A stretch of 64,000 nt of DNA from an uncultured Methanosarcinales archaeon (GCA_964453185.1 CAYVNN010000002.1:55843-119842), one strand, 5' to 3'; counted from the first letter of the stretch, positions 4,960 to 47,379 are shown. Program-made: numbers and translations. Notes: generated from the letters alone by a model not told the origin.

Positions 4960-5060
4960 AATGCCACCGCCTTGGCTCACTATTATAAATAATTTACAAT
5001 AGCGTCAGAATAAGATACGTACATAAAATAAATTTATAATGCCAGAGCCGCTGTGGCATT
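4960..5060. repeat. structured inverted-repeat element, copy A (ATAATGCCACCGCCTTGGCTCACTAT ... AATGCCAGAGCCGCTGTGGCATTAT)
   Basis: Terminal 10-bp stem ATAATGCCAC/GTGGCATTAT plus inner stem GGCTC/GAGCC. It shares the core with the copies at 17652, 23767, 28321, 43741 and 46133. It lies 3' of the minus-strand gene 5084..5956. Confidence 0.75.
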
Positions 5061-5083
5061 ATTAAAAAAATAAAATAAAAGAA

Positions 5084-5956
5084 TTATTTAAAATAATTCT
5101 TCTTATAATGAACAAAGTAATAAACCAATCCCATAATCACTAAAAGTAATAATACTGCACCAACAACCACTGCAACATTAGATTCTTCTTCAATCTCTGT
5201 TGGAATTGTTTCAGATAAATCTTCTGCAATATCATTTATTGATTTTTCTTCCACTTCCTCTAATTCTTCTTCAGAAGTATCTTCCTCTGGTTCTTCTGGT
5301 TCTTCTTCAAGAATTTCTTCTTCCTCTTCTACATCTTCTGTATCCTCTGTATCCTCTGTACTTTCTTCTGCTTCTTCAACATATTCTCGTAATTCTAAAT
5401 AAACCATTGTACTTGATGATCTTTCAAAATAAACAGATAAATCATTATCTCCATCTTGATCTAAATCAATATATCTTGTTTCCCCTTTCTCAATTGTTAA
5501 TGTCTGTGGATCACTTTCAATTGTTATTGTTGCAATTCGTTCCACAGTATCATAATCATCAACAGTTAATGTATGTGAATAATCATTATACTTAAAACGT
5601 GTATATTGGGTTGGTTTAAGATTTACAGTCTTTGATGTAGATGAAAGTGTAAATAATGTAGATGAACTACCGCCGCCACCTCCACCACTTGATGAAGTTG
5701 TTGTACTAGAATCATCTTCACTACTTGTTGTGCTTGAACTTGAAAAACTAGCAGTAAACTCATAACTAGCAGAAGTTGCACCACCTGAAGCTGATGATGA
5801 TGATGATGTATCTCCTTCATAAGTAGCAGATGACAAATCTCCAGCTACAGTCCCTGAACTAGTTGATTCAGCCTCATAACTATCTGAACTTACATCAGCC
5901 CCAAATACAAAAGGCAATGTAAACAAAATAACTAAAAAAACAATTAATTTTTTCAT
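5084..5956 (-). CDS. secreted acidic Ser/Thr/Gly-rich surface protein with a C-terminal TM anchor
   Basis: N-terminal signal peptide (MKKLIVFLVILFTLPFVFGA), a long S/T/G low-complexity region, an acidic E/D-rich tail and a C-terminal hydrophobic anchor followed by a KKNYFK tail. Confidence 0.5.
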   Translation of the reverse strand: MKKLIVFLVILFTLPFVFGADVSSDSYEAESTSSGTVAGDLSSATYEGDTSSSSSASGGATSASYEFTASFSSSSTTSSEDDSSTTTSSSGGGGGGSSSTLFTLSSTSKTVNLKPTQYTRFKYNDYSHTLTVDDYDTVERIATITIESDPQTLTIEKGETRYIDLDQDGDNDLSVYFERSSSTMVYLELREYVEEAEESTEDTEDTEDVEEEEEILEEEPEEPEEDTSEEELEEVEEKSINDIAEDLSETIPTEIEEESNVAVVVGAVLLLLVIMGLVYYFVHYKKNYFK

Positions 5957-5969
5957 TTTTTCACCTTAA

Positions 5970-7121
5970 TTAATGGAATGCTTTCCAACTAGATCCATCA
6001 CAACCATAAAATGTATTATCAGTCATATTAAAAAAGATAGTACCTGCATCTGTTGGGCCACATGTTGCTAAAGCCACAGGTGATGTTCTTAATGTACCAT
6101 CAGCACTAATATTTCCAGCAACCTCTAACATTACTCCTGGATCATCTGTTCCAATACCAACTCTACCGTCATTAACAATTCTCATTAATTCACCTTCTGT
6201 TGAATTCTGAAAAGAAATATTAGCGGACTCTGACTGAACTGTGTTTGCTACCAATGAATTACCAGATGCAGCAATAGAACCAACAACTTCTAAAGTATAA
6301 AAAGGATTAGTCACTCCAATACCCACTTTTCCTGCTTGCGTTATTCTCATTACCTCTGCAGGCGTTGAATTTATAAATGTAATATTTTGTCCAATAGGAA
6401 AATCAAGATTATTAACAATCAAACTATTAGAAGCTTTAATACTACCAACAACATCTAAAACCTGAGCAGGAGTTGTTGTTCCTATTCCCACATTTCCAGC
6501 ATCTGTTATCCTAATTATTTCATTAGATGTTGAATTATAAAATGAAATAGCACTTGTTGATGAAGGAATCTTTAAAGCACCAGTAGCTACACTAGTAGCA
6601 ACAAGTGTTCCATTAACATCTAGAATACTAGTAGGATTATTTGTTCCTATACCAACCCTATTATTATCATAATCAATATGTAACGTACTATTATCAGAAT
6701 TAAAAGTAAAATTAGCACTTTCAAGATCTCCTGAACCTACATCTCCCAAAGGAGAATAAAATATTCTTCTATCAACATTATCTCCAGTTAAATTTGTAAA
6801 ATTAGCATCTTCATTATTAATATAATAATTTTTATAATAAGCATCACCATAATTCAAACTTAAAGCATTAGAACTATTTTCCCCTAATAAAACATTCCAT
6901 GAACCATTACTAATTGCATTAGTAAAGTTCTCTGCATACTGTAATGTTCCACCAGATGCAGCATCCCATATTTCAACTGTTAAATTTCCTGTACTTAACA
7001 ATGTCCCTGTCGAACTCGTCTTAACACCACTACCACTATCAGACATTACAAATCCACTTGCTGCACTTACACTAAAACTTAACATAACTAGAACCATAAC
7101 ATAAACTAATACTTTTTTCAT
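5970..7121 (-). CDS. secreted repeat protein with phage-tail-fibre-like G-x-VGIGT-x-x-P repeats
   Basis: Signal peptide, then four repeats of the type (M/I)RIT(D/Q)AG(N/K)VGIGTTTPAQVL(D/E)VVGSI and a C-terminal YGCDGSSWKAF. Confidence 0.55.
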   Translation of the reverse strand: MKKVLVYVMVLVMLSFSVSAASGFVMSDSGSGVKTSSTGTLLSTGNLTVEIWDAASGGTLQYAENFTNAISNGSWNVLLGENSSNALSLNYGDAYYKNYYINNEDANFTNLTGDNVDRRIFYSPLGDVGSGDLESANFTFNSDNSTLHIDYDNNRVGIGTNNPTSILDVNGTLVATSVATGALKIPSSTSAISFYNSTSNEIIRITDAGNVGIGTTTPAQVLDVVGSIKASNSLIVNNLDFPIGQNITFINSTPAEVMRITQAGKVGIGVTNPFYTLEVVGSIAASGNSLVANTVQSESANISFQNSTEGELMRIVNDGRVGIGTDDPGVMLEVAGNISADGTLRTSPVALATCGPTDAGTIFFNMTDNTFYGCDGSSWKAFH

Positions 7122-7181
7122 ACTAACCCACCTCTTTTAATAATAATTTATATTTAATTAATTAAGAATATATAAACCTTT

Positions 7182-7799
7182 CTATATAAACAACTTAGTC
7201 CCAATCCTTACCATATTACTTCCTTCATCTATTGCTATATTATAATCATTACTCATACCCATGGAAAGATATTTTAATTTTAACCTAGAATTAATCTTCT
7301 TCATCTTTCTAAAATATTTCCTTGTTTCTTCTGCTTCAACAAAAGGAGCCATACACATTAACCCAATAACTTCAATATTCTTCAATTTCCTAATTTTATC
7401 ATAAGCATCAATTACTTCATCAACTAAAAAGCCATATTTTTGTTCTTCAAATTTTATCTCTAACATTATTGGCATTTTCTTTACACTTCTTTTATCTATC
7501 TCCAAAGCCAACCTTAAAGAATCAACAGATTGAATGCAATCAAACAATTCAACAGCTTTCTTTACTTTATTAGTCTGTAAGTGACCAATCATATGCTTTT
7601 CCACATTTTCTATATGCTTAAACTTTTCTTCTGCTTCATTTACCCTATTTTCACCAATTACTTTAACACCACATCTAATTAACTCATTGATTTCATCTAC
7701 ATTCCTTCCTTTTGTTACAGCGATTAACTTAACATCCCCTATTTCCTTTTTAATTTTCTCTAAATTATCTTTAATCATATATCCAACAATATCATCCAA
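7182..7799 (-). CDS. yggS: YggS/PROSC-family PLP-binding protein
   Basis: LIAVTKGRNVDEI...IGHLQTNKVK...IEVIGLMCMAPF...MGMSNDY is the characteristic UPF0001 alanine-racemase-N-like fold signature. 205 aa. Confidence 0.8.
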   Translation of the reverse strand: MDDIVGYMIKDNLEKIKKEIGDVKLIAVTKGRNVDEINELIRCGVKVIGENRVNEAEEKFKHIENVEKHMIGHLQTNKVKKAVELFDCIQSVDSLRLALEIDKRSVKKMPIMLEIKFEEQKYGFLVDEVIDAYDKIRKLKNIEVIGLMCMAPFVEAEETRKYFRKMKKINSRLKLKYLSMGMSNDYNIAIDEGSNMVRIGTKLFI

Positions 7800-8312: not shown

Positions 8313-11300
8313 TTATGTTGTACTTGGAGGATTCAACAATGCTTCTACTTGAGATTTATTATAATACTCAAATTGATTTCTACTATTAATATGAACTAAA
8401 AACAGATCATCATTAGATGTTGGAACAACAACAAAATCAACATTTTCTTGTGTGGTTAATCCATTTAATTCAATAGCTGAACCATCTTCCACTTTAACAA
8501 CTGTTTGATCATTCAAAACTCTAACTTCAACATCTGTTCCAGCACTATCTTTAACAATATGTGGTTGAGTTAATTCTTCAAATCCAAGAACTGTATGATC
8601 AGTTAAACTTGCATAATCATGACTTGAACATCCACATGATTCAAATGCAACCTTAAACTCAGCTCCATTTCTTTCAGAATGTGCAAAGATATCAACAGCT
8701 GTTCCATTTAAATCTTGTGAAGTTGTATAAACTAAATTGTTTGGATCAAATCCATATCTACCTACAATAGGATCTTGACCAACTAAAAACATTGTTCCAT
8801 TATGATTAACTGCAGCTCTATCTGTTGTTGTTAATCCTGCTAATACTGGTGCAGGTAATGGACCTGGTACTGGATCTGGTGTTGGTGCAACAGGACTTGG
8901 TGCTTCCATTGGTTTTGCAATATAAAGATGCTCTGCTCTATGACCATCAAAGTCATAATTAGGATCATTAACTAATGTCTTCACACCAACCATAAATTCA
9001 TCATCTAATGTATTCTCAAAAACACCAACATGTGCAAACTCTAATTCTCCCTCTTTATCAAACACAAGTTGTGTTGGTGTAGTATCACCATCACTCATAC
9101 CAAATATACCTTCAAAATTAGATAACAATTGATCATCAGTAGCAAGAACAACAGGTGTACCCTCATCTGAAGCAAATCTCCCACCATCTATATAATCCTC
9201 TCCTGGAGTAATATCTAATTCAATATTAACAAAATTCACATCAGCTGGATTAAAATTTCCTGCATTAGCAAAATTATAAACTGAATCTGCTGCTTGATTA
9301 AATTCTGCTTCTGTATCTAATGAAATTAAATTAACAACAGTAGGTTTATTATTTCCAACATCTTGAATAGTATCAAGAATACCTGTTGAACCTAATTCAG
9401 TCAGAGTTCCATATGATAAAACCTCTGATAATGTATAATTTGGAATAGTTAATCCACTAACTGCAGGTGCTGTTGGAAGAGGTGTTCTTCCTGCACATAA
9501 TGCTCTAACAGAGTTTTCAATCTCAGATGCAGAATCATTACCATACCAATGTTGTACTAAATTTCCTTCTTTATTAAACAATAAATTAATTGGTGTATCT
9601 CCACCATTAGCAATACCTGAACTTTCTAATGCTGTCCATGCTTCTGCGTCTGAAAAATCAACAACATCGTATGCTGGATTATATCCTTCATCTTTTAAAT
9701 CTTCAACAACTGAATTAATATAAGGTAAGTCTGCTTCAGGACTTGATCTATTCCCTAATTCTGCTACAACAACATCAAATTCCTTATCAGAATATCTACC
9801 ATATAAGTCATCAGCAACAGCTAATGCTCCATTTGGATTATCTAATGTTGTATCTGTTGGATCATCAACACCAAACATTGTAACTAATAAAGCATTTGTC
9901 TCATCTGTTAATTGAGCATTGATATCATAAACATCTCCACCTAAACCAGTCATTGGAACATTAGATAAATCATTTAATGTCATCTGTGGTACAACAGGAG
10001 GATCTACCGGTCCTGGAACTACTGGGTCAGGTGTCACAGGTTGTGGTCCTGGTTGAACTGGGTCAGGTACAACTGGTTGTGGTCCTGGAACTACTGGTCC
10101 AGGTTGAGTAGGTGTTGTTCCTGGTCCTGGAATAACAATAGGATCTGAAACAGGACGATAAACATTATCATTATAAGGCATCATTGGTGCATCATTACTT
10201 GTATCAATTGTATTAATATTACATGCATTAGTTTGAGGAGTATGTTGTCGCCCAATTAAAGGATGATATTGTTCCTGTCCTTGTCCTCTACATGGACAAT
10301 CATCTGACGGTTGTACTGGATCAGGTTGAACTATTGGATCAGGTGTACTTGGATCAGTAGGAACCACTGGATCTGCACCATGATCTACTCTAAACTTAAA
10401 GTCAACAACAGTATCATCACCAAAACCTAATGCTCTTGAATAACTATTTCCAGAATTAACTGAATCTAAATAATCATTGTCTGATACGGAAACTTGTACT
10501 GTATGAACTTCCTCAGGATTTAAATGTGAAACATCAAATCCATTTGTAACTTCTGCATTTCTTGGAACCCATCCTTCTCTATGGACATGATCTCCATCAA
10601 TATAAAAATCAATATGATCAATTCCACTTCCTGTAAACCAATTTACAATACCAGTAGAATTTTCTTGAACTCTAAAACTTAAATTTAATTCTCCATCTGT
10701 AATAGGATCAGCAAATACTCTTGTTCCACCCTCAACAACTGTTGAATTTGAAACCCATTCTCTTGTTTCCATATGTACTTCATAAAGATTAGGATCTTCT
10801 GTACTCATTTTATCATGAGCAACACCAAATTCATGATCACCAAATCCTGCTGCTCTATTTCCATGAAAAATACATTCACAATTAATATCTAAATCATTTG
10901 AATCTAAAGAATGTGTACTCCAACTATCTACATGTTGAGCTTGTCCACTTCCATCATAAATCCATGCATCCTCGTCGTGAATACCATTTAGTGTAAAATC
11001 ATCTGAAATACTAAATTCACCACCTTCAATAGTAATTGCTCCTGCTTGAACTCCTTTAATTACAACATCAGTAATATTATTATCAAAAACAATTTTTCCT
11101 TCATTGTTCTCAACAACAGTATGTCCATTTTCTGTTGAAACTTCATATCCATTAACAACAACATCATCTAATGTTGCTGCATGTGCAGTTGCCGGTGCAA
11201 ATGCTCCAACTAAACCTGCTACCGGAACAATACCAATTGCAGCAATATCTGAAATCTTTGATAATAATGAACCATTATTTCTAGTTCCTTCATCTGCTGA

Positions 11301-12197
11301 TTTACTCATTTTTGCAGCTGCATATCTTAATCCATAATTAGCTGCTAATGCTCCCCCTACAACTCCTAATGCAAGTGGACCACCAAATGCAGCACTCTTC
11401 ATAGTAATCGCTGCTAATCCTGCTAATCCTGCCCCTAATTGTGTTGCTTCTTGAGAAACTTTATCTTTTAAAACATAACCAGCTAAATCTGCTGCTGGCT
11501 TTGCAACAATCTGACTTCCAACTAATGAAGCTGCAACATAACCTGCTGCTCCTAAAGTCATTGCACCAACTCCTAAATAACTAGCTGCTAATGGCGCAGC
11601 AATTAATGCAGCTGGTGTCAAAGCTGCTCTCTGCATCTTTGTTAATTTAAATCCTCTATCAATATGATCTCTCTCAGCATAACCTAATTCTGCAAAAGCA
11701 TCATGTAATGTTCTTGCCATATCTCCTGATTGAGCTTGATTAACATAACTTGTTAATGTTCTTGTATGTCCTCTTTGCTCTCTAGCTCTCGATAATACTT
11801 GTGTAACATAACCTACTTCTTGATCTGATAATCCTGTTGAAAAGTAAGTTTTAACTGGTGCAGTCATAACATTTGCAATATATTTAGCAACTCTTCCTAA
11901 TCTTGTTGCTGGTTGTGATTCATTTTTAACTAATAAATTTCCTTGACCTTGTTCAAGAACATAATCTAAACCTTGTACTGATAATTTTCCATTTTTCATA
12001 TAGCCTTGAATATTAGCTTGTGTAGTAGCATCTACTGTAGCTAAATTCTCTTGTAAATTAGCGCTTGCTTTAGCTAAATAACTATCAGCATAACCTTTTT
12101 CAGAACCTGTTAACATACATTTTACTCTATCAACTAATGAAACTCTTTCTTGTGAAATTCCTGCATTTGCAGTCATTGTAGTAGCATAATTACTCAT
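8313..12197 (-). CDS. giant (about 1294 aa) membrane-anchored surface protein with a Pro-rich linker and large ectodomain
   Basis: Start at the ATG at 12197, preceded by GGGGG. The first ~190 aa are hydrophilic, followed by 3-4 hydrophobic helices (aa ~200-345). A long extracellular region then contains PVQPGPQPVTPDPVVPGPVDPP linkers. Confidence 0.55.
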   Translation of the reverse strand: MSNYATTMTANAGISQERVSLVDRVKCMLTGSEKGYADSYLAKASANLQENLATVDATTQANIQGYMKNGKLSVQGLDYVLEQGQGNLLVKNESQPATRLGRVAKYIANVMTAPVKTYFSTGLSDQEVGYVTQVLSRAREQRGHTRTLTSYVNQAQSGDMARTLHDAFAELGYAERDHIDRGFKLTKMQRAALTPAALIAAPLAASYLGVGAMTLGAAGYVAASLVGSQIVAKPAADLAGYVLKDKVSQEATQLGAGLAGLAAITMKSAAFGGPLALGVVGGALAANYGLRYAAAKMSKSADEGTRNNGSLLSKISDIAAIGIVPVAGLVGAFAPATAHAATLDDVVVNGYEVSTENGHTVVENNEGKIVFDNNITDVVIKGVQAGAITIEGGEFSISDDFTLNGIHDEDAWIYDGSGQAQHVDSWSTHSLDSNDLDINCECIFHGNRAAGFGDHEFGVAHDKMSTEDPNLYEVHMETREWVSNSTVVEGGTRVFADPITDGELNLSFRVQENSTGIVNWFTGSGIDHIDFYIDGDHVHREGWVPRNAEVTNGFDVSHLNPEEVHTVQVSVSDNDYLDSVNSGNSYSRALGFGDDTVVDFKFRVDHGADPVVPTDPSTPDPIVQPDPVQPSDDCPCRGQGQEQYHPLIGRQHTPQTNACNINTIDTSNDAPMMPYNDNVYRPVSDPIVIPGPGTTPTQPGPVVPGPQPVVPDPVQPGPQPVTPDPVVPGPVDPPVVPQMTLNDLSNVPMTGLGGDVYDINAQLTDETNALLVTMFGVDDPTDTTLDNPNGALAVADDLYGRYSDKEFDVVVAELGNRSSPEADLPYINSVVEDLKDEGYNPAYDVVDFSDAEAWTALESSGIANGGDTPINLLFNKEGNLVQHWYGNDSASEIENSVRALCAGRTPLPTAPAVSGLTIPNYTLSEVLSYGTLTELGSTGILDTIQDVGNNKPTVVNLISLDTEAEFNQAADSVYNFANAGNFNPADVNFVNIELDITPGEDYIDGGRFASDEGTPVVLATDDQLLSNFEGIFGMSDGDTTPTQLVFDKEGELEFAHVGVFENTLDDEFMVGVKTLVNDPNYDFDGHRAEHLYIAKPMEAPSPVAPTPDPVPGPLPAPVLAGLTTTDRAAVNHNGTMFLVGQDPIVGRYGFDPNNLVYTTSQDLNGTAVDIFAHSERNGAEFKVAFESCGCSSHDYASLTDHTVLGFEELTQPHIVKDSAGTDVEVRVLNDQTVVKVEDGSAIELNGLTTQENVDFVVVPTSNDDLFLVHINSRNQFEYYNKSQVEALLNPPSTT

Positions 12198-12335: not shown

Positions 12336-14909
12336 ATGAAACATAGTATTTGGACAGAAAAATATAGACCTTCAACATTTGAAGAGATAAAAGGTCAAAA
12401 AGACGCAATTTCTAAGGTTAAAGCATTTGTTGAGCAAAAAAACATGCCGCACTTAATGTTTGCAGGTCCAGCTGGCGTTGGTAAAAGTACAACTGCTTTA
12501 GTTATAGCAAAACAATTATTTGGCAAAGAATGGAGAAATAATTTCCTTGAACTTAATGCATCTGACGAGAGAGGAATTGATGTAATCAGAGTAAAAGTTA
12601 AAGATTTTGCAAGGACAAGAGCCATAGGTGATGTACCATTTAAAATCATCTTCCTTGACGAGTGTTTAGATTATAATTCTAAAATTATTGTACAATCAAA
12701 CTATGGCATTGAAGAAGTTTCTATTGGTAATTTCGTTGAAAATTTTGATTTTCAAAATTATAAAATCATGTCTGTAGATGATAGTGGAGACATGATTTAT
12801 TCAAAAATTACCAAAACTATGAAGCTTCCTCATAATGCTAGTCATGGATACTACAAAATTAAAGTACATGATAAAGAAATAATTGTAACAGGAAATCATG
12901 AATTTTTATCAATTAATGGGTGGAAAAGAGCTGATGAGTTGAAGATAAAAGATCTAGTTCTATGCCCACAAAAAATTCCAATTATTAACAGAATCGAATC
13001 TAATAAACCATTGATATACAATTTAATAGGTTTACCACAGGAGATAAGAAAAAAAGAGAGATATTTACCACAGGAGATAAGAAAAAAAGAGAGATATCTT
13101 CCAAGATCACCTGAAAAACAAATTATTGAATTATTAGGAAAATATCCGGAAGGTTTAACTAGAGAAGAAATAACATTAAAAAGTAAAGTAAGTACTTCAA
13201 AAATAACTTCTATTTTAAGTGATAAAAACAATGTTTATTACATTCCACTAAGAAAACATAAGATCATTAAGAAAAATAAAGACAGATATATTTTAGGAGA
13301 TAATACAGGCAATTCCCTAGACAAGCTTTATAAAATTAAAAGGACACAAAATAATACAAATCAAGAATTCATCTTAACTCAACTTAAATCAAAAGAATTA
13401 TTTCCTATAAAAAGAGAAAATGCAATAATCTGTGCTAGGATTTTAGGGCACCTATTTAGTGATGGTTGTTTAACCCTTAAAAGTAAGCAACTATTTTTCT
13501 CTGGAAAAGAAGAGGATTTAAAAACTATAAAGAAAGATCTTAATAAATTAGGCTATTATTCATTAGGTAATATTAGACATTCAAAATGGAAAAAAGGTGA
13601 ATGTTGGTCTTTTGGAGCTTATAAACTAGAGTTATTAAGCTTATTTTACTCATTAGGTGCCCCAGTAGGAAAAAAGACAGACAATGTAGTAAGAATCCCT
13701 GAATGGATAATGGACAGTGACTTAACTATACAATCAGCATTCTTATCTGCCCTCTTTGGTGGAGATGGTTATGAACCAAAGTTCCAAGGGAGAACAGTCA
13801 AACAAATATTAATAGGAATCTCTAAGCGAGAAGATTTACAAAATAACCTAATTGAGTATCTGAAACAAATACAACAGTTACTTTCCAGATTTAATATAAC
13901 CTCAAGATATAGAATTTGTCCAGGTTATAAATCCACACGGAAAGACAATACAAATACTATTGAAGGCAGAATCTGGATTACTAATTCAATGGAAAATATT
14001 TATAAATTTCTAACTAAGATTGGATATTCATATTGCCAATATAAAGAAAAAACTACAAAAGATGTTATAAAATATTTGGATTGGAAAAAGAGTTTAGGAA
14101 AATTTATTTACACATTTAAACCAGTCCCTTATTTCTATGAATGGAGAGAAAATCTTATGCTTGGTGATTCTTCCTATCATTATGTAACATCTATTGAAAA
14201 AATTAAAGATCCAGATTTTGTATACTGTGTATCTACAGAATCTGGAAGATTTATAGCAAATAATATTGTAGTACATAATTGTGATGCTCTAACAAAAGAA
14301 GCACAACAAGCTCTGAGAAGAACAATGGAAAACTATACATTAACCACAAGATTTGTTTTATCATGTAATTATTCTTCAAAAATCATTGATCCAATCCAAA
14401 GTAGATGTGCAATGTTTAGATTTAAACGTCTACAACAAGATGAAATCATTGATTTAATCAATCATATTGCTACAGCAGAACAATTAAATATCGACGAGGA
14501 TGCAAAAAAAGCATTATACACAGTTTCTGAGGGAGATTGTAGAAAAGCAGAGAATATATTACAATGTTGTACTGCAATTAACAAACACATAACAAAAGAC
14601 CTAATATTTAGTATGGCATCTGTTGCAACACCAACAGAAATCAGAGAAATGCTAGAATTAGCTATTAATAATAAGTTTGTCGACGCTAGAAACAAATTAT
14701 TAGATACAATGTTAAAGTATGGTTTAAGTGGAATTGATATAATCAAACAAATAAACAGAGAAATCTGGAAACTAGATATCGACGACAAAATGAAAGTACA
14801 ACTCATCGACAAATGCGGAGAAACTGAATTCAGAATGACTGAAGGCAGTGATGAGTATTTACAACTTGAAGCATTATTAGCTAATTTTACTCTGTGTAGT
14901 TTGAAATAA
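12336..14909 (+). CDS. rfcS: replication factor C small subunit interrupted by an intein
   Basis: N-terminal EKYRPSTFEEIKGQ...FAGPAGVGKST Walker A, and IIFLDE|C...VVHN|CDALT Walker B split by the intein. C-terminal SRCAMFRFKRL sensor region. Confidence 0.9.
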   Translation: MKHSIWTEKYRPSTFEEIKGQKDAISKVKAFVEQKNMPHLMFAGPAGVGKSTTALVIAKQLFGKEWRNNFLELNASDERGIDVIRVKVKDFARTRAIGDVPFKIIFLDECLDYNSKIIVQSNYGIEEVSIGNFVENFDFQNYKIMSVDDSGDMIYSKITKTMKLPHNASHGYYKIKVHDKEIIVTGNHEFLSINGWKRADELKIKDLVLCPQKIPIINRIESNKPLIYNLIGLPQEIRKKERYLPQEIRKKERYLPRSPEKQIIELLGKYPEGLTREEITLKSKVSTSKITSILSDKNNVYYIPLRKHKIIKKNKDRYILGDNTGNSLDKLYKIKRTQNNTNQEFILTQLKSKELFPIKRENAIICARILGHLFSDGCLTLKSKQLFFSGKEEDLKTIKKDLNKLGYYSLGNIRHSKWKKGECWSFGAYKLELLSLFYSLGAPVGKKTDNVVRIPEWIMDSDLTIQSAFLSALFGGDGYEPKFQGRTVKQILIGISKREDLQNNLIEYLKQIQQLLSRFNITSRYRICPGYKSTRKDNTNTIEGRIWITNSMENIYKFLTKIGYSYCQYKEKTTKDVIKYLDWKKSLGKFIYTFKPVPYFYEWRENLMLGDSSYHYVTSIEKIKDPDFVYCVSTESGRFIANNIVVHNCDALTKEAQQALRRTMENYTLTTRFVLSCNYSSKIIDPIQSRCAMFRFKRLQQDEIIDLINHIATAEQLNIDEDAKKALYTVSEGDCRKAENILQCCTAINKHITKDLIFSMASVATPTEIREMLELAINNKFVDARNKLLDTMLKYGLSGIDIIKQINREIWKLDIDDKMKVQLIDKCGETEFRMTEGSDEYLQLEALLANFTLCSLK
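12663..14279 (+). other. intein (539 aa) with a LAGLIDADG homing endonuclease domain inside rfcS
   Basis: Begins with Cys at the DE|C junction and ends with HN, followed by Cys. Two LAGLIDADG-like motifs: ILGHLFSDGCL and LSALFGGDGY. Confidence 0.8.
13035..13100 (+). repeat. perfect tandem duplication (2 x 33 nt) inside the intein, encoding PQEIRKKERYL twice
   Basis: ccacaggagataagaaaaaaagagagatattta followed by ccacaggagataagaaaaaaagagagatatctt. Confidence 0.9.
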
Positions 14910-14911
14910 TT

Positions 14912-16661: not shown

Positions 16662-17570
16662 TTAATCCCAAAGTTCAGGATTTTCATTGATTCTTACAAC
16701 TTCTGCAATGTAGTCTTGGTAATAATATGTTAAAGTCAGATCAACTTGTTTAGTATACAATGCATCTTCTTCTAACTCATCACTTCTACATCTAATAGTT
16801 ATAATGTCTTCTTCTCCAGATCTTGACATTCTTGCAACAGAAGCATCGCCTTTTGCAGTACATGTAAATCCATCTGTGTTTACTTCAAAACCCACTTGAT
16901 CATAGAGATTTGAAAAATCATCACTTAGATAAGCTTTTGCTCTTCCTGCTCCTGCATTATAGACAGGTATTTCTAAATAGATTCTTCCATTACCTGCTGG
17001 TCTTTCTGTTACTCCACCAATTTGTATTGGACCTGCTGAAGCATAGGCTGTCTTTGAACCATACACATCACAATATCGTTCATCCTTAAGATCTTCTTTA
17101 AAACAAACTCTTGGAACTGCAATTTGTGTTGTATAAGGATATGTATATTCTAATAAAATATTTGCATCATAGAATGTTCCAGTCAATCCATCATATTTTA
17201 GATCACCTAAATCTACAACATCATAATCTCCTTCTGGTAAAAATTGTGAAACCTTTTCTAATTCATCATCATTAGTTACTTCAAAACTAATTCCTGAAAA
17301 GTCTGAAGGAGAGATTCCTTTAATTTCCATATAAATTTCATTAGATAATATTGTATGTTCACCTAAATTTTCTAAGATAACAACCAAAGGGAATGTTTCA
17401 TCTTCATAAATTTCATTTGTATCTATTTGAAAACTTGCAACTAATCCATATGTTCCACCATAGTATGGACTAACTACAGCTGCATCTGTCTGTGCAGTAT
17501 TTCCACAACCTGTAGATACAATTAGAATGATAACAGCAAGCATTATTAGTAATAGATTTCTTACACGCAT
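16662..17570 (-). CDS. secreted lipoprotein (paralog 1 of 3)
   Basis: Start at the ATG at 17570 (MRVRNLLLIMLAVIILIVSTGCGN), preceded by a GGAGG RBS. The longer track ORF runs into repeat copy B. The C-terminal region is similar to the two downstream genes. Confidence 0.5.
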   Translation of the reverse strand: MRVRNLLLIMLAVIILIVSTGCGNTAQTDAAVVSPYYGGTYGLVASFQIDTNEIYEDETFPLVVILENLGEHTILSNEIYMEIKGISPSDFSGISFEVTNDDELEKVSQFLPEGDYDVVDLGDLKYDGLTGTFYDANILLEYTYPYTTQIAVPRVCFKEDLKDERYCDVYGSKTAYASAGPIQIGGVTERPAGNGRIYLEIPVYNAGAGRAKAYLSDDFSNLYDQVGFEVNTDGFTCTAKGDASVARMSRSGEEDIITIRCRSDELEEDALYTKQVDLTLTYYYQDYIAEVVRINENPELWD

Positions 17571-17651
17571 AATATATCCCTCCTTAATTATAAGTATATA
17601 CTTAATATACCTCTTTATATAATTTGTGGTAAAAATAACAATACTAGCATT

Positions 17652-17753
17652 AAAACCAGCGCCTTGAGTCACTATCTTATTTCTTCATAACTACGCACTA
17701 AAATATGTTGCGTTAATGAAAATTCCTCATAATGCCAGACTCGCTCTGGTTTT
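17652..17753. repeat. structured inverted-repeat element, copy B (CATTAAAACCAGCGCCTTGAGTCACTAT ... AATGCCAGACTCGCTCTGGTTTTAATG)
   Basis: The terminal stem is changed on both arms (AAAACCAG/CTGGTTTT) and the inner stem is changed on both arms (GAGTC/GACTC) relative to copy A. The core CGCCTTG..CACTAT / AATGCCAGA..CGC is retained. Confidence 0.75.
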
Positions 17754-17774
17754 AATGATTCATTATTGACTTTA

Positions 17775-23300: not shown

Positions 23301-23739
23301 AACCACGTGTAACAGCATTATGTGTTAAGAATTTACCAAAGCCTTTTGCTCTTTGCCATAATAAACTAGTTAATTGCTTTTTTCTATCTAACTCATCCAT
23401 TCCTTTAGCATGTCTTAATGCTTGAATCTTTGCAGTTAAATCAGAAAGATTAGCTTTATTTTCATTATGAGAATCTTTAAAATCTTTCCAAGGTTGTTGA
23501 AAAGTAGGCTTTACTGCATGTTCTTTCACATGAGGTAAGCCCAAATCTTTAGCCTTAGTCCAATTAGAATGAGCCATATCTACGGCTTCTGTTTTAGCAG
23601 CACCCCATGCCTTACCTGCTCCTGACTTAGTCTTACTCCAAGCAGCACTACTTACAGCTTTAGCTCCTGACTTAGTCTTACTCCAGGCAGCACTACCTAC
23701 AGCTTTAGCTCCTGCCTTAAATCCAGCCCATGATACCAT
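20395..23739 (-). CDS. giant (about 1114 aa) multi-TM protein with a large ectodomain containing an SLT-like (lytic transglycosylase) segment
   Basis: Start at the ATG at 23739 (MVSWAGFKAG), preceded by GAGGT. The longer ORF merely translates repeat copy C. Tandem AKAV(G/S)SAAWSKTKSG repeats are followed by about 6 TM helices. The ectodomain contains IAMIAAGSKNDPTTVGLSSPLGETNGLMQI, which resembles the SLT catalytic region but has Gly where the catalytic Glu is expected. Confidence 0.5.
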   Translation of the reverse strand: MVSWAGFKAGAKAVGSAAWSKTKSGAKAVSSAAWSKTKSGAGKAWGAAKTEAVDMAHSNWTKAKDLGLPHVKEHAVKPTFQQPWKDFKDSHNENKANLSDLTAKIQALRHAKGMDELDRKKQLTSLLWQRAKGFGKFLTHNAVTRGLSIPFYYGGKGIINLFKGGADEDERRTNSSIFWFFVFACIYHAVVIGSRLSIKNRIFLNLFWMILVPILFIFHPSERNGKTYRIMLVCFCIEVIVPWMVASSSMIASIDFIRLFVANGFIMLTWIYYAVYRGSEAKLWYIRLSRFLIIMWWVFIILSYGMGQMYGFTDLELDTADYERWDAFLVLKDKFVEGGSQIFTSTWGAFSRFGDIWEIRKKQLTSTYYVGQVEENEEEQLGVYIEDVMASKEKFYEDERVTVFAILMARTLDDMVQINTTCYAGKGTSKVYGEVYPATMEVYDMQQEEIDCTIPQNKLSPGSHAVTFESKFNFETIGYVKRYFTSRDRLNSALKDGVDLLDQYQVEDKDPVARYSNGPIRLGIGPDSALTGIDSTYQVKPRLGITLDADTNWDGMIEEIKEIVVIIPDSMELDLDTCSDTNFKEYTEDRCVSSNVEYETAFYRACEDEGAVTDDTMRACLLLKCQEELDGYNAYYLDTSRNTNHYKDIEDFVSYNCRLDIVDEHKLLGNTPISTKYFFVKARYDYKIVEDTSVKVIESDTAAGYAETSYSKSEESYTGKPDELVSDIYTIYYASSPNSISEWSDRYGMDPQLVIAMIAAGSKNDPTTVGLSSPLGETNGLMQITEEDAAVIAAELGIVDYDLFDPDTNIRFGVRRMYDLLNNENIPFDSEDPELNREYLLATYYGGVCGIRDGEYVGVFCDSQDCIGDKRYWCEYDDDYEQVRLYVQLVETYYKKVQELNLVQSGELKSETNEDNFLVQGSFTINGETKDFSETIDLDTSGTKLIISIDDSKKLKIFIYTNNQTETVYEGTIPTSEEYSERWIYIDNNPAFSYYVVVEDGKLMSFNYEILAYSVINSDYLIEGADEVEVWTGFIWTKYEDDEIFLYYKDYMGNFKEFCTIEWEDDDVMGQCDEKDSQGFYVRKRDTVEGTVLPDYTKVQFEYVPLGQFASMAS

Positions 23740-23766
23740 TATTAACCTCTTTTTTACAGCTATAAT

Positions 23767-23899
23767 AATGCCACCGCCTTGACTCACTATCTACTATATA
23801 GCGAAGGCGCTAAAAGTCTTTATACGTACAGCAGTGACTTAGTAGCATGCAATGCTACTACCTTCCCTCTACACATCGTGCCAGAGTCGCCGTGGCATT
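23767..23899. repeat. structured inverted-repeat element, copy C
   Basis: AATGCCACCGCCTTGACTCACTAT ... TGCCAGAGTCGCCGTGGCATT. Inner stem GACTC/GAGTC. The internal module TATAGCGAAGGCGCTAAAAGTCTTTATACGTACAG is shared with copy G. Confidence 0.75.
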
Positions 23900-24008
23900 A
23901 TTAACCTCTTTTTTAGTTTTACAACTACCTCAACTTAAATTCTAGAACTTCTTATATATAATATTTATGCATTTATGTATATAATAATTAAAACAAAAAA
24001 AGAAAATC

Positions 24009-25724: not shown

Positions 25725-26004
25725 AAAATCACCTGTTTTTTATGTGTAAATAACATCCTCAGGTCAAAACACCAACAAAAACAAACATAATGCTCGTTGC
25801 GAGGGGTTGTCCCTCCGGGAACGCAGAGCCTTAATTAACCTTAGCCTGTGTTTTGAAGATGTTATTTACATACCTTTTTTATAGATTATTAAGTATTATA
25901 ATATCTATTTTTAAATATTGATATATATAAGGTTTTCTATTTTAAGAAATGAGATAAACTACCTATCCAATATATCACAGATCCTACTAAAATAAGGATC
26001 ATCT

Positions 26005-27327: not shown

Positions 27328-27347
27328 ACATTGACATATACAATAGT

Positions 27348-27368
27348 ACCACCGCCTTGGCTCACCAT
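27348..27368. repeat. solo 5' half of the structured element (ACCACCGCCTTGGCTCACCAT), 21 nt after the pelA stop
   Basis: Matches the 5' core of copies A-G. No 3' partner within 100 nt. Confidence 0.6.
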
Positions 27369-28306: not shown

Positions 28307-28320
28307 TTCTCAAATACAAT

Positions 28321-28476
28321 AATGCCACCGCCTTGGCTCATTATCCTATCACAACATAGTATAGCGACAGGATATAGCAAAAGCAATTTTTGCTTTCTGC
28401 TTATTACGAAAAGCTTGCTTTGAGTATACGGTTTGTACATTATACATACACATTGAGTCAGAGCCGCAGTGGCATT
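28321..28476. repeat. structured inverted-repeat element, copy E (longest, 156 nt)
   Basis: AATGCCACCGCCTTGGCTCATTAT ... TCAGAGCCGCAGTGGCATTAT. Begins 15 nt after the stop of 27419..28306. Confidence 0.75.
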
Positions 28477-28565
28477 ATCTAGTTCTAACAATATATACAG
28501 TAATATACAAAAAACACACTTCTTCAGGGAAAACTTTAAAAATTAAAAAAAATTCAAGTATTCTA

Positions 28566-43738: not shown

Positions 43739-43740
43739 TA

Positions 43741-43847
43741 TTAACACCACCACCTTGACTCTGTATTGGATAATCCACAAGATCGCACTAAAAGTCGCGT
43801 TGCGTTATTCTAACTTTACTAAGAGCTAGAGTCGCTGTTGGCGTTAA
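43741..43847. repeat. structured inverted-repeat element, copy F
   Basis: TTAACACCACCACCTTGACTCTGTAT ... CTAGAGTCGCTGTTGGCGTTAA. Begins 3 nt after the stop of 42653..43738. The terminal stem pairs better when read from the minus strand (G-U instead of A-C). Confidence 0.65.
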
Positions 43848-43859
43848 TTTAAAGAAATC

Positions 43860-44580: not shown

Positions 44581-44632
44581 ATTAAGAAAGAGTTCTAGTT
44601 TAGTTTAAAAAAATTGTTAAAAAAAGAAAAAA

Positions 44633-45360: not shown

Positions 45361-45406
45361 TTATTTACCACTTAAAAGTAACGTAAAAAACAAAACATTT
45401 ATAACT
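45361..45406 (+). promoter_or_regulatory. conserved upstream element + BRE/TATA (TTATTTACCACTTAAAAGTAACGTAAAAAACAAAACATTTATAACT) for the cyclase gene
   Basis: Paralogous to 36711..36756. The TATA box lies about 22 nt before the ATG at 45428, which implies a leaderless transcript. Confidence 0.5.
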
Positions 45407-45427
45407 AGAAAACCATCTCCAACACAT

Positions 45428-46120
45428 ATGAACACTAAAACAGATGAAAATACTAAGACAAAAGTCGTTATGTTTGTAGATATTACTAATTATTCTAAAA
45501 AAACATCAAATATAAGCAAACAAGACCTAATCGAATTACATGACATATTTGATGGCTTCTGTATACCTAATTTTGAAGCATTTACAGGCAGAATCATCAA
45601 GAAAATAGGAGATGCATTCTTAGTAACCTTTGAGAATCCAACAGACGCAGTAATGTGCGGAATTGAATTACAGAAATCATTTCACAATCACAATAAAAAA
45701 ATAAGAAGAACAAGACCTAAAAATCAAATCAGAGTTAGAGTCGCACTCCACATGGGAGAAGTTACATATAGAAAAGGAGATATCTATGGTGACACAGTTA
45801 ACACTACAGCTCGTCTAGAAGCCTTATGTAAACCAGGACAAGTAGTATTTAGTGGATCAGTATATTCTGCAATGGAAAGAAACGGAATAGGTATTGTCCA
45901 TTTAGGTTTAAGAAAATTAAAAGGAATGAAATATCCAGTACAAGCATTTAGAATCAGAACCAAAGTAGACGACAGAATCATCAAGATTAAGAAAAGAAAG
46001 AAATCATATACAAAATTTAAACAAAGAATCAGTGCCAGTATATTATTACTTATTTCACTAATAGCTGGAGCAGCTTCTGTTGCTATTATTCTATATTATC
46101 TATTTAGTACAGTTTTATAA
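45428..46120 (+). CDS. class III nucleotidyl (adenylate/guanylate-type) cyclase with a C-terminal TM anchor
   Basis: VVMFVDITNYS (metal-binding Asp), IGDAFLVTF, GDTVNTTARLE and a C-terminal ILLLISLIAGAASVAIILYYLF helix. Confidence 0.7.
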   Translation: MNTKTDENTKTKVVMFVDITNYSKKTSNISKQDLIELHDIFDGFCIPNFEAFTGRIIKKIGDAFLVTFENPTDAVMCGIELQKSFHNHNKKIRRTRPKNQIRVRVALHMGEVTYRKGDIYGDTVNTTARLEALCKPGQVVFSGSVYSAMERNGIGIVHLGLRKLKGMKYPVQAFRIRTKVDDRIIKIKKRKKSYTKFKQRISASILLLISLIAGAASVAIILYYLFSTVL

Positions 46121-46132
46121 GCAAATAATTTG

Positions 46133-46242
46133 GCATTTGTACTAGCACCTTGACTCACTATTAAATAATACAGCGAAAGCGCTAAAAGTCTTATACGTAC
46201 AGAAAAACATACATTGTATCAGAGTCGTCCTAGTACAAATGC
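46133..46242. repeat. structured inverted-repeat element, copy G
   Basis: GCATTTGTACTAGCACCTTGACTCACTAT ... TATCAGAGTCGTCCTAGTACAAATGC. The terminal stem is a perfect 13-bp helix with a sequence unrelated to the other copies. Begins 13 nt after the cyclase stop. Confidence 0.75.
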
Positions 46243-46325
46243 AATTTATAACCAAGGCAGCAGCATTACTACATTAGTAGATAATATAGGAAAAATTAAT
46301 AAACTTTGTATAATTATTTACATTA

Positions 46326-47351
46326 ATGAAGTTTAAATCAGACAAAGAATCAAAACCAATCAAACTTGATCTAAAAGATAAAAGAATTCTAAAATTACTT
46401 GACTTAAATTCTAAACAAAGTTATTCTGCAATTGCAAAAAAAGTTGGATTATCTAAAGAAAGTATTAGATATAGAATAAAACAACTAGAAGACAAAGGAG
46501 TAATACAAGGATACAGACTTGTAGTTGATATGCAGAAATTAGGATTCATTGTTAATCATATTTTTATGACACTAAGCAAACCAGACCTAAAGATTGAAGC
46601 AGATTACTTAGATAAACTAATCAAACTACCCTTTGTCAGAGCAATAATTAAATTTAATGGAGATTATGATTATGAAATTGCAATGGTTGCAAAGAATGTT
46701 GAAGAGATTGATAATAATCTAAACACATTACTTGAAGATGTAAGTCAATTCATAAAAAAACAAGAATTATTTATTGTTGTTAAATATTACGTAAAAAAAG
46801 GATTACCAAATAGTTTTTTACCAGAATCTCAAGCAGGATTTAAGAAAGTAACAAATGAGACGACAAAAGAACCAAATATTGATGAAAAAGATTTAAAGAT
46901 AATTGATGCAATGAAAGGACAAGCAAATAAACCAATCTATCAAATTGCAGAAGAAACAGGATATTCTTCAGAAGTTGTTTCTTACAGACTTAAAAAGATG
47001 GAAAAATCTGGCTTTATATCTAATTATACAATTGCACTTAATTATTATGCATTTAATTATCAAGTCTATGTAATATTACTTAATGTCCATAGTTTACATG
47101 GTGAAACTGAACAAAAACTAGCTAGTTTCTTAGAAAATGATAATAATGTTATTTGGGCAGTTAAAACAATTGGTAAATATAATGTTATTGCATATGTCTG
47201 CACAAAAAGCATTAATGAATTACATGAAACCATAGATAAAATAAGAAGAAACTTTGGAGATAACCTTCAAGATCACAAAACATTAATTGCTTATGAAAAC
47301 AATAAGTTTACTTATGTACCTGATGTTGCACTAAGTGAAGAAGCAGAGTAA
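46326..47351 (+). CDS. tandem (double) Lrp/AsnC-family transcriptional regulator
   Basis: Two HTH_AsnC-like segments (KDKRILKLLDLNSKQSYSAIAKKVGLSKESIRYRIKQLEDKGVIQGY and DLKIIDAMKGQANKPIYQIAEETGYSSEVVSYRLKKMEKSGFI), each followed by a RAM-like domain. Confidence 0.65.
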   Translation: MKFKSDKESKPIKLDLKDKRILKLLDLNSKQSYSAIAKKVGLSKESIRYRIKQLEDKGVIQGYRLVVDMQKLGFIVNHIFMTLSKPDLKIEADYLDKLIKLPFVRAIIKFNGDYDYEIAMVAKNVEEIDNNLNTLLEDVSQFIKKQELFIVVKYYVKKGLPNSFLPESQAGFKKVTNETTKEPNIDEKDLKIIDAMKGQANKPIYQIAEETGYSSEVVSYRLKKMEKSGFISNYTIALNYYAFNYQVYVILLNVHSLHGETEQKLASFLENDNNVIWAVKTIGKYNVIAYVCTKSINELHETIDKIRRNFGDNLQDHKTLIAYENNKFTYVPDVALSEEAE

Positions 47352-47358
47352 TCATTAT

Positions 47359-47379
47359 CACCACTGCCTTGGTTCATTA
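47359..47379. repeat. solo 5' half of the structured element (ACCACTGCCTTGGTTCATTAT), 8 nt after the Lrp gene stop
   Basis: Matches the 5' core with 2 substitutions; no 3' partner. Confidence 0.5.

Follow-up and report, generated by a model that had tools for sequence, protein, structure and literature searches.

What are the short hairpin repeats that recur in a 64,000-nucleotide stretch of DNA (the window) from an uncultured Woesearchaeota-like (DPANN) archaeon of about 30% GC? A sequence-only reading of the window had claimed six full copies and two 5' halves of one structured inverted-repeat family, and had offered two explanations for it: a non-autonomous mobile element or a 3'-UTR RNA motif. 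Each interval was read, and all eight copies are present:

E1, 4958-5062, + strand: full copy with outer stem ATAATGCCAC ... GTGGCATTAT; covariance model 113 bits
E2, 17648-17757, + strand: full copy with the outer stem altered to CATTAAAACCAG/CTGGTTTTAATG, compensation complete; 111 bits
E3, 23765-23901, + strand: full copy; covariance model 99 bits
E4, 28319-28478, + strand: full copy with the longest interior; covariance model 101 bits
E5, 43740-43848, + strand: most diverged full copy, two A.C mismatches in its stems, beginning 2 nt past the Trm14 stop codon; 66 bits
E6, 46133-46242, + strand: full copy whose 13-bp outer stem is unrelated in sequence; 80 bits
H1, about 27346-27368, + strand: solitary 5' half, an outer-arm remnant and CGCCTTGGCTCACCAT, no 3' partner
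H2, about 47357-47380, + strand: solitary 5' half, CACCAC-TGCCTTGGTTCATTAT

The E elements are about 105-160 bp long and non-coding. They hold no conserved ORF, and a short ATG-CCA-CCG frame ends after 4-33 codons, at differing places. Searching for the 5' core CGCCTTGRSTCAYTAT with up to three mismatches gives nine matches (1.27 expected; none of 100 shuffles reached nine), eight of which are the claimed copies, all on the + strand. The 3' core YCAGASYCGC marks the six full copies, and a pattern combining both cores was found twice where none was expected. The cores hold as proposed, although not letter for letter: E5 and E6 open with CACC and H2 with TGCC rather than CGCC, and TCA precedes the inner stem in E4 and E6, whereas E1-E3 have CCA and E5 has CTA. 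The proposed GC of the 3' core is found in every full copy but E6, which has GT; this GT compensates the CACC of the same copy, turning a G-C pair of the 2-bp helix into A-T. The copies also share interior motifs, which argues for common descent as a repeat family; the interiors of E3 and E6 are 94% identical across 32 nt.

Every full copy folds into the same hairpin, consisting of an outer stem, a 1x1 mismatch, two base pairs, a 3-nt bulge and a 5-bp helix (z-scores -1.8 to -4.9), followed by a 2x3 internal loop (AC/CCA). The 5-bp inner stem and the mismatch are thus as first described, whereas the bulge is better given as three nucleotides (CTT) than as TT. Pairing runs between the 5' and 3' cores rather than within either of them, and by inspection GCCA...TGGC self-pairing occurs only in E1, E4 and H1. 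When the six copies are aligned, 94.7% of stem cells are paired, and slid controls give 29-48% pairing. Both sides have changed in 10-11 of 18-19 pairs (11 of 19 in the six-copy alignment), and there are no one-sided changes; none of 500 shuffles attains this result. The outer arms differ between copies at 4-6 of 10 positions and are compensated every time. Stem variation without compensation, which the sequence-only reading had named as evidence against itself, is therefore not seen, and RNAalifold recovers the same hairpin independently. With the covariance model, the six copies score 66-113 bits on the + strand against 13-32 bits on the - strand, and no other full copy turns up in the window.

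Three further matters go beyond the earlier reading: a second hairpin family (X), target duplications, and a link between element orientation and strand skew. The X family has three copies of the same strand polarity as E:

X1, 1510-1652, + strand: core GCCTTAAGGTCAAAA ... TTTTGAAGGCA; the 3' arm holds the stop codon of a radical-SAM gene
X2, 25742-25871, + strand: homologue of X1 with compensatory changes in the interior helices
X3, 62816-62931, + strand: hairpin with the core GCCTTAAGGTGAAC, inserted between ABC ATPase and permease genes

Direct repeats flank one E copy and all three X copies, with lengths of 20 (E3), 15 (X3), 10 (X2) and 9 nt (X1). The longer two are as follows:

23737-23756, no strand: E3 left direct repeat, 20 nt, CATTATTAACCTCTTTTTTA; holds the working RBS and ATG of a - strand SLT-domain gene
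23896-23915, no strand: E3 right direct repeat, 20 nt, CATTATTAACCTCTTTTTTA; overlaps the end of the E3 3' arm by its first 6-7 nt
62798-62812, no strand: X3 left TSD copy, 15 bp, TCATTTAATCACCAA; carries the permease ATG
62932-62946, no strand: X3 right TSD copy, 15 bp, TCATTTAATCACCAA; carries the ATPase TGA stop

The E3 repeat is exact and duplicates the RBS and ATG of the next gene; it can be read as 20 bp, or as 13 bp with 7 nt of microhomology. At X3, a syntenic relative provides the comparison. There, the junction of the ABC ATPase and permease genes is uninterrupted and the genes overlap by ATGA, whereas in the window this junction is duplicated as an exact 15-bp TSD around X3. The permease N-termini are homologous (MTKYGFRRILF versus MTKFGFRRILF), and the two loci form a clean filled-versus-empty site. 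This empty-site proof belongs to X3 and not to any E copy. The repeats at X2 (p about 0.02) and X1 (p about 0.08) are shorter, and an in-frame stop codon is regained when X1 is taken out together with one of its repeat copies. A search of the flanks detected no target duplication at E1, E2, E4, E5 and E6, that is, at five of the six full E copies. The duplications are accompanied by 2-22 nt of filler, at one junction only. We know of no transposase that makes duplications of variable length with such filler, and this combination might instead be the trace of capture mediated by repair or replication.

All eight E and three X copies lie on the + strand, whereas the flanking genes run in both directions: E1-E3 lie behind - strand genes, E6, H1 and H2 behind + strand genes, and two copies between convergent genes. 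With one chromosomal orientation and upstream genes on either strand, the transcribed strand must differ among copies. At four-fold sites the + strand is C/A-rich under genes of either orientation (+ genes have a coding-strand GC3 skew of -0.56, - genes one of +0.38), so the whole window lies in one replichore. Element orientation tracks this strong replication-type strand skew and not gene direction.

About 22 kb of the same genome past both window ends contains no further E copy, and all eight lie within 42 kb of the roughly 86 kb readable from this genome, so the earlier estimate of several hundred copies genome-wide is unsupported. The nearest relatives (47-52% identity) lack the E family, 21 kb of the syntenic relative included, and phage, plasmid and viral collections gave no match to the elements. 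Presence/absence polymorphism was not found, all metagenome contigs of the organism being 100% identical. As stated before, the repeats are neither CRISPR nor tRNA, and no Rfam family overlaps any E element even at E<=10; the sole Rfam match in the window is archaeal RNase P (47790-48108).

The search for a mobilising enzyme found no transposase, integrase, HUH enzyme (RAYT of the Y1 type included), Cas1 (Cas1-solo casposase included), reverse transcriptase or tyrosine recombinase in the roughly 86 kb, in line with the earlier remark that the window has no transposase. The only nearby transposase gene, single-copy and of the IS6/IS240 type, lies 1.8 kb beyond the window, and no inverted repeats like the element ends surround it.

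We favour, with a probability of about 0.6, the reading that the E elements, and likewise the X elements, are lineage-specific families of non-coding, non-autonomous mobile DNA, each a long imperfect hairpin. Between the two explanations first offered, the duplications at E3 and X3, the empty site of X3, the truncated copies and the absence from relatives speak for the mobile element, and fixed orientation against mixed gene direction speaks against the 3'-UTR motif. Under the mobile-element reading, a protein encoded elsewhere would recognise, on one strand of the DNA, the folded junction formed by the outer stem, the C.N mismatch, the two G-C pairs, the CTT bulge, the 5-bp helix and the ACTAT/YCA internal loop. 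It would then copy or move the element into the A/T-rich spacers where genes end. Opening of the target would leave a long, variable stagger, the repair of which would duplicate 9-20 bp. Recognition of shape and not of sequence would account for covarying stems with fixed bulge and loop bases, and uniform polarity relative to the strand skew would follow if the protein acted on single-stranded DNA at the replication fork. We infer the single-stranded intermediate, the trans-acting enzyme and the type of that enzyme. The intact covarying stems of old copies could, however, just as well reflect selection for some host function.

The E family of bulged-hairpin elements is new as a family, but it falls within the known world of MITE- and REP-like repeats. 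Like MITEs (Correia/NEMIS of Neisseria, RUP of Streptococcus pneumoniae, SM1-4 of Sulfolobus), E elements are non-coding units of 100-160 bp with inverted ends that form a long hairpin, and they are multi-copy, intergenic and beside gene ends, with target duplications at some copies. Unlike in MITEs, the outer arms covary rather than conserve sequence, and the conserved part is an asymmetric internal junction. Furthermore, neither E nor X has a known parent IS, each has a single polarity, and duplications vary from 9 to 20 bp, whereas those of MITEs have a fixed length of 2-10 bp. Long and variable duplications, filler at one junction and a conserved asymmetric junction are unusual for MITEs. 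As candidates for MITEs of a DDE-transposase IS, the repeats are short, non-coding and multi-copy but lack sequence-conserved TIRs shared with an IS and a TSD of fixed length. REP/REPIN sequences, which RAYT (Y1 HUH) transposases mobilise, are also extragenic hairpin repeats near gene 3' ends, with a unit of about 100 nt made of two inverted halves and with solitary halves as remnants, and recognition of folded single-stranded DNA would be common to both. In contrast, the E halves are not palindromic themselves and carry no conserved 5' GTAG-type tetranucleotide, no RAYT was found in the roughly 86 kb, and REPs make no target duplication. RAYTs are essentially bacterial. IS200/IS605-derived PATEs share strand-specific orientation relative to replication and DNA hairpin recognition, but each PATE end has its own subterminal hairpin, the two in direct orientation, and no target duplication is formed, whereas the E ends are reverse-complementary and duplications exist.

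The X3 duplication has the length made by the casposase of Aciduliprofundum boonei, which produces a 15-bp TSD (occasionally 16 or 22 bp), integrates beside a gene 3' end and accepts mini-casposons with TIRs only (PMC5137440). Against a casposon TSD of 14-15 bp (PMC5137440), X3 has exactly 15 bp, E3 has 20 bp (or 13 bp and 7 nt of microhomology) and X1 and X2 have 9-10 bp. The elements also differ from casposons in the filler, and no Cas1 or PolB-containing element was found in the roughly 86 kb. Two archaeal RNA motifs were considered as candidates and rejected. The bulge-helix-bulge has two 3-nt bulges on opposite strands exactly 4 bp apart, whereas E has one CUU bulge, 5 bp and a 2x3 loop. 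The C/D-box sRNA or K-turn (C box RUGAUGA, D box CUGA, tandem sheared G.A by a 3-nt bulge) does not fit, since neither strand has a C box and Watson-Crick pairs follow the bulge; by inspection, CUGA occurs on the - strand of E4 and E6 only.

It is unlikely, although the best of the alternatives, that the repeats form one family of genes for small structured RNAs, or of RNA genes within mobile inverted repeats, in which a protein-bound RNA hairpin has paralogues spread by retroposition of the RNA. Covarying stems with conserved unpaired bases are the classic pattern of an RNA family, and the interior helices of X1 and X2 are preserved by compensatory changes around a G+C-rich apical hairpin. 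Target-primed retroposition is resembled by the variable-length duplications, by filler at one junction only with 6-7 nt of microhomology at E3's other junction, and by truncated copies that always retain the same end. An archaeal precedent exists in the MITE-like C/D-box sRNA elements of Pyrobaculum calidifontis, which are multi-copy, restricted to one species and, as in E, made of imperfect inverted repeats around a small structured core (PMC6009581). Their inverted repeats are highly sequence-conserved and they lie 322 nt from genes on average (PMC6009581), and E, unlike them, has no C or D boxes. Further against RNA genes, Rfam has no match, inspection found no K-turn or canonical bulge-helix-bulge, the 114 + strand stem cells contain no G-U pair, which is unusual for RNA helices, and the stability difference between the two strands does not exceed the genomic background. 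Moreover, the relatives lack the elements, no reverse transcriptase was found in the readable part of the genome, and a promoter is not assignable in such A/T-rich DNA.

Structure-specific recombination sites like integron attC, at which a recombinase reads folded single strands and which border exchangeable gene blocks, are quite improbable here. The architecture follows attC logic, with arms that vary in sequence yet pair, fixed extrahelical bases, a mismatch, a variable terminal structure (40-100 nt) and one orientation, where attC function is strand-dependent. In the relative, RNase P RNA directly follows Trm14, whereas in the window a block of about 4 kb, bounded and subdivided by E5, E6 and H2, separates them, and the pairs H1-E4 and E6-H2 each enclose a single gene. 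On the other hand, the earlier denial of attC was correct: by inspection, four of the six copies (E1, E3, E4 and E6) lack R''/R' boxes (RYYYAAC/GTTRRRY), having no AAC/GTT at the stem base, and E2 and E5 have partial matches only. There is no array of mostly promoterless cassettes with intI and attI; segments of 1-15 kb between copies carry housekeeping genes on both strands (RFC, pelota, pyrophosphatase, Ack-Pta), and no integrase or other tyrosine recombinase was found in the roughly 86 kb. Target duplications flank elements here, and attC x attI recombination makes none.

Least probable are cis-acting RNA hairpins of 3'-UTRs or intercistronic regions, selected locus by locus as terminators, mRNA stabilisers or processing sites. 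A stop codon does lie within about 2-22 nt on at least one side of every copy except E3 (108 nt), and compensation preserves the stems even in old, diverged copies, but polarity is independent of upstream gene direction, so that transcription would turn the conserved asymmetric features into different RNAs at different copies. In addition, no consistent T-tract follows the hairpin in the flanks inspected, the elements are missing at the syntenic genes of the relative, and X3 lies between two genes whose translation is coupled, a place where its presence is more likely tolerated than required. If the elements are mobile DNA, the inserted hairpins will probably come to lie within mRNAs, in their 3' or intercistronic parts, but as a side effect.

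The E family comprises six full copies of a hairpin element of about 105-160 bp (E1, 4958-5062; E2, 17648-17757; E3, 23765-23901; E4, 28319-28478; E5, 43740-43848; E6, 46133-46242) and two 5'-half copies (H1, ~27346-27368; H2, ~47357-47380). This is the count proposed by the sequence-only reading, and it was borne out when the intervals were read: the architecture is present, and all copies lie on the + strand. The 5' core CGCCTTGRSTCAYTAT with up to three mismatches has nine matches in the window, eight of which are the E and H copies, all on the + strand (1.27 expected by chance; nine matches in 0 of 100 shuffles), and the 3' core YCAGASYCGC is a marker of the six full copies. All six fold alike. 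The outer stem (10-13 bp) is followed by a 1x1 mismatch (C opposite N), a two-pair helix (GC/GC; AC/GT in E6) and a CTT bulge of 3 nt; next come a GRSTC/GASYC helix of 5 bp, an internal loop with AC and YCA on opposite sides and, beyond it, an interior of 40-110 nt. The mismatch, 5-bp inner helix and paired outer stem described earlier are thereby retained, and the bulge is corrected from TT to CTT. The interiors of E3 and E6 have 30 of 32 nt in common (TAGCGAAGGCGCTAAAAGTCTTTATACGTACAG), those of E2 and E5 share CGCACTAAAA...GTTGCGT, and TAGCG...ATACGTACA is kept in E1. The interiors are therefore non-random and have motifs in common, so that the E elements are copies of one common ancestor.

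The stems of the E elements are conserved as pairs. In a MAFFT alignment of the six full copies annotated with the structure, standard pairs occupy 94.7% of cells; both sides change in 11 of the 19 pairs, and one side alone in none of the 19. These pairing and covariation values were reached by 0 of 500 shuffles, and sliding the partner by 1-3 columns gave pairing of 29-48%. RNAalifold, given the alignment as sole input, arrived at the same structure (18 pairs), with compensatory changes in 10. For instance, the outer arm differs from that of E1, E3 and E4 at 4 of 10 positions in E2 and at 6 of 10 in E6, and the opposite arm matches every change. Within the 10-bp outer-stem core and the two inner helices of the six copies, the only cells departing from Watson-Crick pairing are two A.C pairs, both in E5, and there is no G-T pair. 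Uncompensated stem variation, which the sequence-only reading had named as the sign of simple inverted-repeat decay, was not seen: both the alignment test and RNAalifold find changes matched on both arms.

A second hairpin family, X, was traced from weak matches to the E model and has three copies in the window:
X1: 1510-1652, + strand
X2: 25742-25871, + strand
X3: 62816-62931, + strand
The family core is GCCTTAAGGTSAA ... TTTTGAAGGCA. X1 and X2 are clear homologues that have in common the core CCT(T/C)A(A)GGTCAAAA ... TTTTGAAG and a G+C-rich apical hairpin, GGGGTTG(C/T)(G)CCC, and their interior helices are kept by compensation (e.g., GTTC/GAAC versus GCTC/GAGC). X3 has GCCTTAAGGTGAAC in common with both. 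The X design is that of the E family: the outer stem varies and is followed by a short helix, a bulge on the 5' strand and a further helix.

Signs of insertion were sought as direct repeats in the 50-nt flanks of each element, with shuffled controls. X3 is flanked by the exact 15-mer TCATTTAATCACCAA (62798-62812 and 62932-62946), which reads TTGGTGATTAAATGA on the - strand; the right copy ends an ABC ATPase gene (…LVIK stop), and the left copy gives a permease gene its ATG. In a syntenic relative of 52% identity, nothing separates these two ABC genes, which share an ATGA overlap, and the permeases are homologous at the N-terminus (MTKYGFRRILF versus MTKFGFRRILF). By this comparison, the window has the filled X3 site, bounded by a target-site duplication of 15 bp, and the relative has the empty one. 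E3 is flanked by the exact 20-mer CATTATTAACCTCTTTTTTA (23737-23756 and 23896-23915), which occurs only twice in the window and on the - strand, as TAAAAAAGAGGTTAATAATG, holds the ribosome-binding site and start codon of an SLT-domain gene; the real start (MVSWAGFK) uses the left copy, and the right one continues into the element. The flanking repeats of X2 and X1 are 10 nt (p about 0.02) and 9 nt (p about 0.08), respectively, and removing X1 together with one repeat copy restores an in-frame TAA, turning the C-terminus …KSLNKNM into …KSLNK. For E3, X1, X2 and X3, repeat and element meet exactly or within 4 nt at the right junction of the + strand (in E3 they overlap by 6-7 nt), and 2-22 nt of additional sequence lie at the left junction. 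The 50-nt flanks of E1, E2, E4, E5 and E6 hold no duplication, perhaps because these copies may be older, their interiors being much more diverged; there is also no target duplication around H1 or H2. Insertions are observed only where genes were spared. Through the duplications of 15 and 20 nt, a stop codon, a ribosome-binding site and a start codon are restored, and survivorship is therefore a probable influence on where insertions lie and how long the duplications are. A target duplication of 15-20 bp suffices to leave both neighbour genes intact.

The window (29-35% G+C) is carried on a 405-kb contig, and its genes include those for pelota, Trm14, a membrane pyrophosphatase and an intein-containing RFC small subunit. 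Two of its features are as follows:
12336-14909, + strand: replication factor C small subunit, intein with LAGLIDADG domain
47790-48108, + strand: archaeal RNase P RNA (127.6 bits)
The named homologues of Trm14 belong to Woesearchaeota and Nanoarchaeota (DPANN), the nearest being 52% identical. DPANN archaea have tiny, tightly packed genomes, and their mobile DNA is little known. Other metagenome contigs over the window are 100% identical, save one 5.4-kb contig with 3 mismatches, and strain polymorphism is therefore unusable. A 383-aa repeat protein (5970-7121, - strand) matches phage tail-fibre PHROGs (best E 1e-21); the adjoining 1304-aa and 290-aa proteins have no known domains, and all three probably act at the cell surface or in contact with a host.

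E1-E3 each sit behind a - strand gene; for E6, H1 and H2 that gene is on the + strand, and E4 and E5 are placed between convergent genes, with a stop codon 2-22 nt from each copy on at least one side (108 nt for the exception, E3). All eight copies are on the + strand while the flanking genes run both ways, and their orientation is therefore independent of transcription; what it does track is strand composition. Coding-strand skews at four-fold degenerate sites are -0.56 (GC) and +0.24 (AT) for + strand genes, against +0.38 and -0.05, respectively, for - strand genes. Enrichment of the + strand in C and A thus holds for genes of both orientations, and the - strand carries 68% of coding sequence. 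The asymmetry at these sites is very strong and unusually marked for an archaeon. Under the skew rules of bacteria and archaea, the window would be part of a single replichore with leading-strand composition on the - strand, and the elements would thus have one polarity with respect to replication.

The E and X families are most likely non-autonomous mobile hairpin elements. The sequence-only reading had offered either a new non-autonomous mobile element or a new 3'-UTR RNA motif; the insertion signatures support the first, and orientation disfavours the second. A family of RNA genes, possibly retroposed, is an unlikely alternative with a precedent in a MITE-like sRNA element known in Pyrobaculum (PMC6009581). 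That the copies are attC-like recombination sites is quite improbable. Such sites would find support in a ~4-kb block of five genes with E5, E6 and H2, bounded by these copies, between Trm14 and the RNase P RNA; the relative is without the block, and there the RNase P RNA (contig L116, ~11100-11420) directly follows Trm14. However, R boxes are absent, no integrase was found in the ~86 kb of this genome, and housekeeping genes in both directions lie between the copies, in line with the earlier rejection of attC sites. A 3'-UTR hairpin selected at each locus is highly improbable given the orientation data.

Other readings were rejected as well. Neither a CRISPR repeat nor a tRNA fits, as proposed at the outset, and a tRNA search found none. 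A bulge-helix-bulge motif is contradicted by the 5-bp length of the central helix and by a 2x3 loop in place of the second bulge; on inspection, the defining boxes and sheared G.A pairs of a K-turn or C/D-box RNA are absent, and an H/ACA RNA was rejected likewise. A terminator is contradicted by the lack of a consistent T-tract after the hairpin, a T7-type phage promoter (the core has GACTCACTAT) by the covariation of the GRSTC positions with the 3' arm, and an ssoA-like origin has nothing beyond the interior TAGCG motif in its support. The folding strand cannot be read from stability: the - strand is stabler for 9 of 9 elements, but also for 75% of random windows. The 295-aa gene between H1 and E4 was considered as a transposase and has no Pfam, NCBIfam, PHROG or PDB match; by eye, the N-terminus of its protein resembles the AbrB/SpoVT fold of PhoU-type regulators. 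Nor are the elements ends of the neighbouring IS6-type element, as inverted repeats like the element ends are absent around its gene. This transposase is single-copy, and its homologues lie in virus- or plasmid-like contigs that hold no E copy. On contig L110 (14399-15785, 1.8-3.1 kb left of the window start), a 164-174-aa PolB-exonuclease-like protein and an IS240/IS6-type DDE protein form a two-gene module that adjoins AAA/NACHT and nucleotidyltransferase genes and is possibly in an integrated element. The module is conserved in four virus- or plasmid-like contigs (L124-L127) full of tiny ORFs, which also carry integrase, resolvase, HNH and Dam genes.

With filters off, a covariance model scored the six full E copies at 66-113 bits on the + strand and 13-32 bits on the reverse strand, and it found no further full copy in the window. 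The ~22 kb of the same genome past both window ends hold no E copy, so the local density is uneven, and none was found in 21 kb of the syntenic relative or in two relatives of 47% identity. The several hundred genome-wide copies estimated in the sequence-only reading gain no support from these results. The E elements have no match in Rfam, even at E<=10, in blastn against phages and plasmids, or in a viral collection scan; two metagenome scans with two-core patterns gave none in a collection apparently without the E6-bearing JGI contig L107. Among the matches listed, a 16-mer scan of genome contigs gave chance matches in bacteria. One 106-nt intergenic hairpin in the syntenic relative (17437-17542; arms TGGTGGCATTACTAC / GTAGTAATGCCAACA) includes TAATGCCACC of the E outer arm and has a weakly E6-like interior (model 15 bits, E about 0.2); a very distant kinship with the E family is possible. 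A bacterial repeat in the Mariprofundus MAGs JALUWF01 and JALUYG01 (at least eight copies, on L008, L009, L020, L021, L041, L052, L059 and L061; no Rfam family matches) contains the exact 16-mer CGCCTTGACTCACTAT, which there is the loop of a different G+C-rich hairpin and was judged a coincidence.

The E family is new. Its covarying arms, the asymmetric junction that stays fixed, target duplications that are both long and variable, and strict polarity mark it as an unusual member of the MITE/REP group but do not set up a new category. The first three of these features, with arms conserved in shape and variable in sequence, also point to an insertion enzyme or pathway so far undescribed for archaeal MITEs. 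A trans-acting enzyme would recognise the folded asymmetric junction on one strand, and selection for mobility would preserve pairing and the bulge and loop bases while arm sequences drift. IS200/IS605 elements, attC sites and group II intron retrotransposition acquire strand polarity through single-stranded DNA at the replication fork; the uniform polarity relative to skew suggests that such DNA is the substrate or the target here. The long duplications would imply a widely staggered opening of the target. To our knowledge, the casposase is the only well-characterised archaeal integrase with a duplication of about 15 bp. Casposase gives occasional 16- or 22-bp duplications and accepts TIR-only mini-elements (PMC5137440). 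Target-primed reverse transcription or replicative template switching would fit equally, with variable length, filler, microhomology and one-sided truncation. The specific proposal, that a long-stagger Cas1/casposase-type integrase or a fork-associated reverse transcriptase mobilises the elements through the folded bulged hairpin and not its sequence, is tentative, with a probability of roughly 10%; no candidate enzyme was found in ~86 kb of this genome. If true, these would be 'mini-casposon-like' or SINE-like elements of a DPANN archaeon that duplicate 15-20 bp of target. The free-living hairpin repeats would then be a possible living analogue of the first spread of palindromic CRISPR repeats, and the enzyme would bear on CRISPR repeat origin if Cas1-type, or on archaeal retroposition if a reverse transcriptase. 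The window holds at least two small hairpin families that insert precisely at gene junctions with strict polarity relative to replication.

Some copies show further detail. In E1 (5033-5065) and E2 (17729-17757), the ancestral 5' arm ATAATGCCA is repeated just before the 3' core; the E1 3' arm thus has two possible partners, the distant 5' arm or this nearby repeat, the latter giving a small hairpin whose loop is 8 nt, and E2 retains ATAATGCCA despite changed arms of its own. Directly beyond E6, the fragment GCTGCCTTGGTTATAAAT (46245-46262), whose first 10 core bases are those of H2, is the sole E-like piece on the - strand. The end of a cyclase gene pairs with sequence past E6 as an outer 17-nt inverted repeat (46086-46102 / 46278-46294), and E6 therefore lies inside a larger palindrome. 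GTG codons at 17672 (in E2) and 23787 (in E3) start the longest ORFs of two - strand genes (VTQGAGF... and VSQGGGI...), of which the real starts are the downstream ATGs of MRVRNLL... (lipobox-like signal peptide) and MVSWAGFK. E2 and E3 thus pull two called ORFs too long, and masking the elements would give better annotation.
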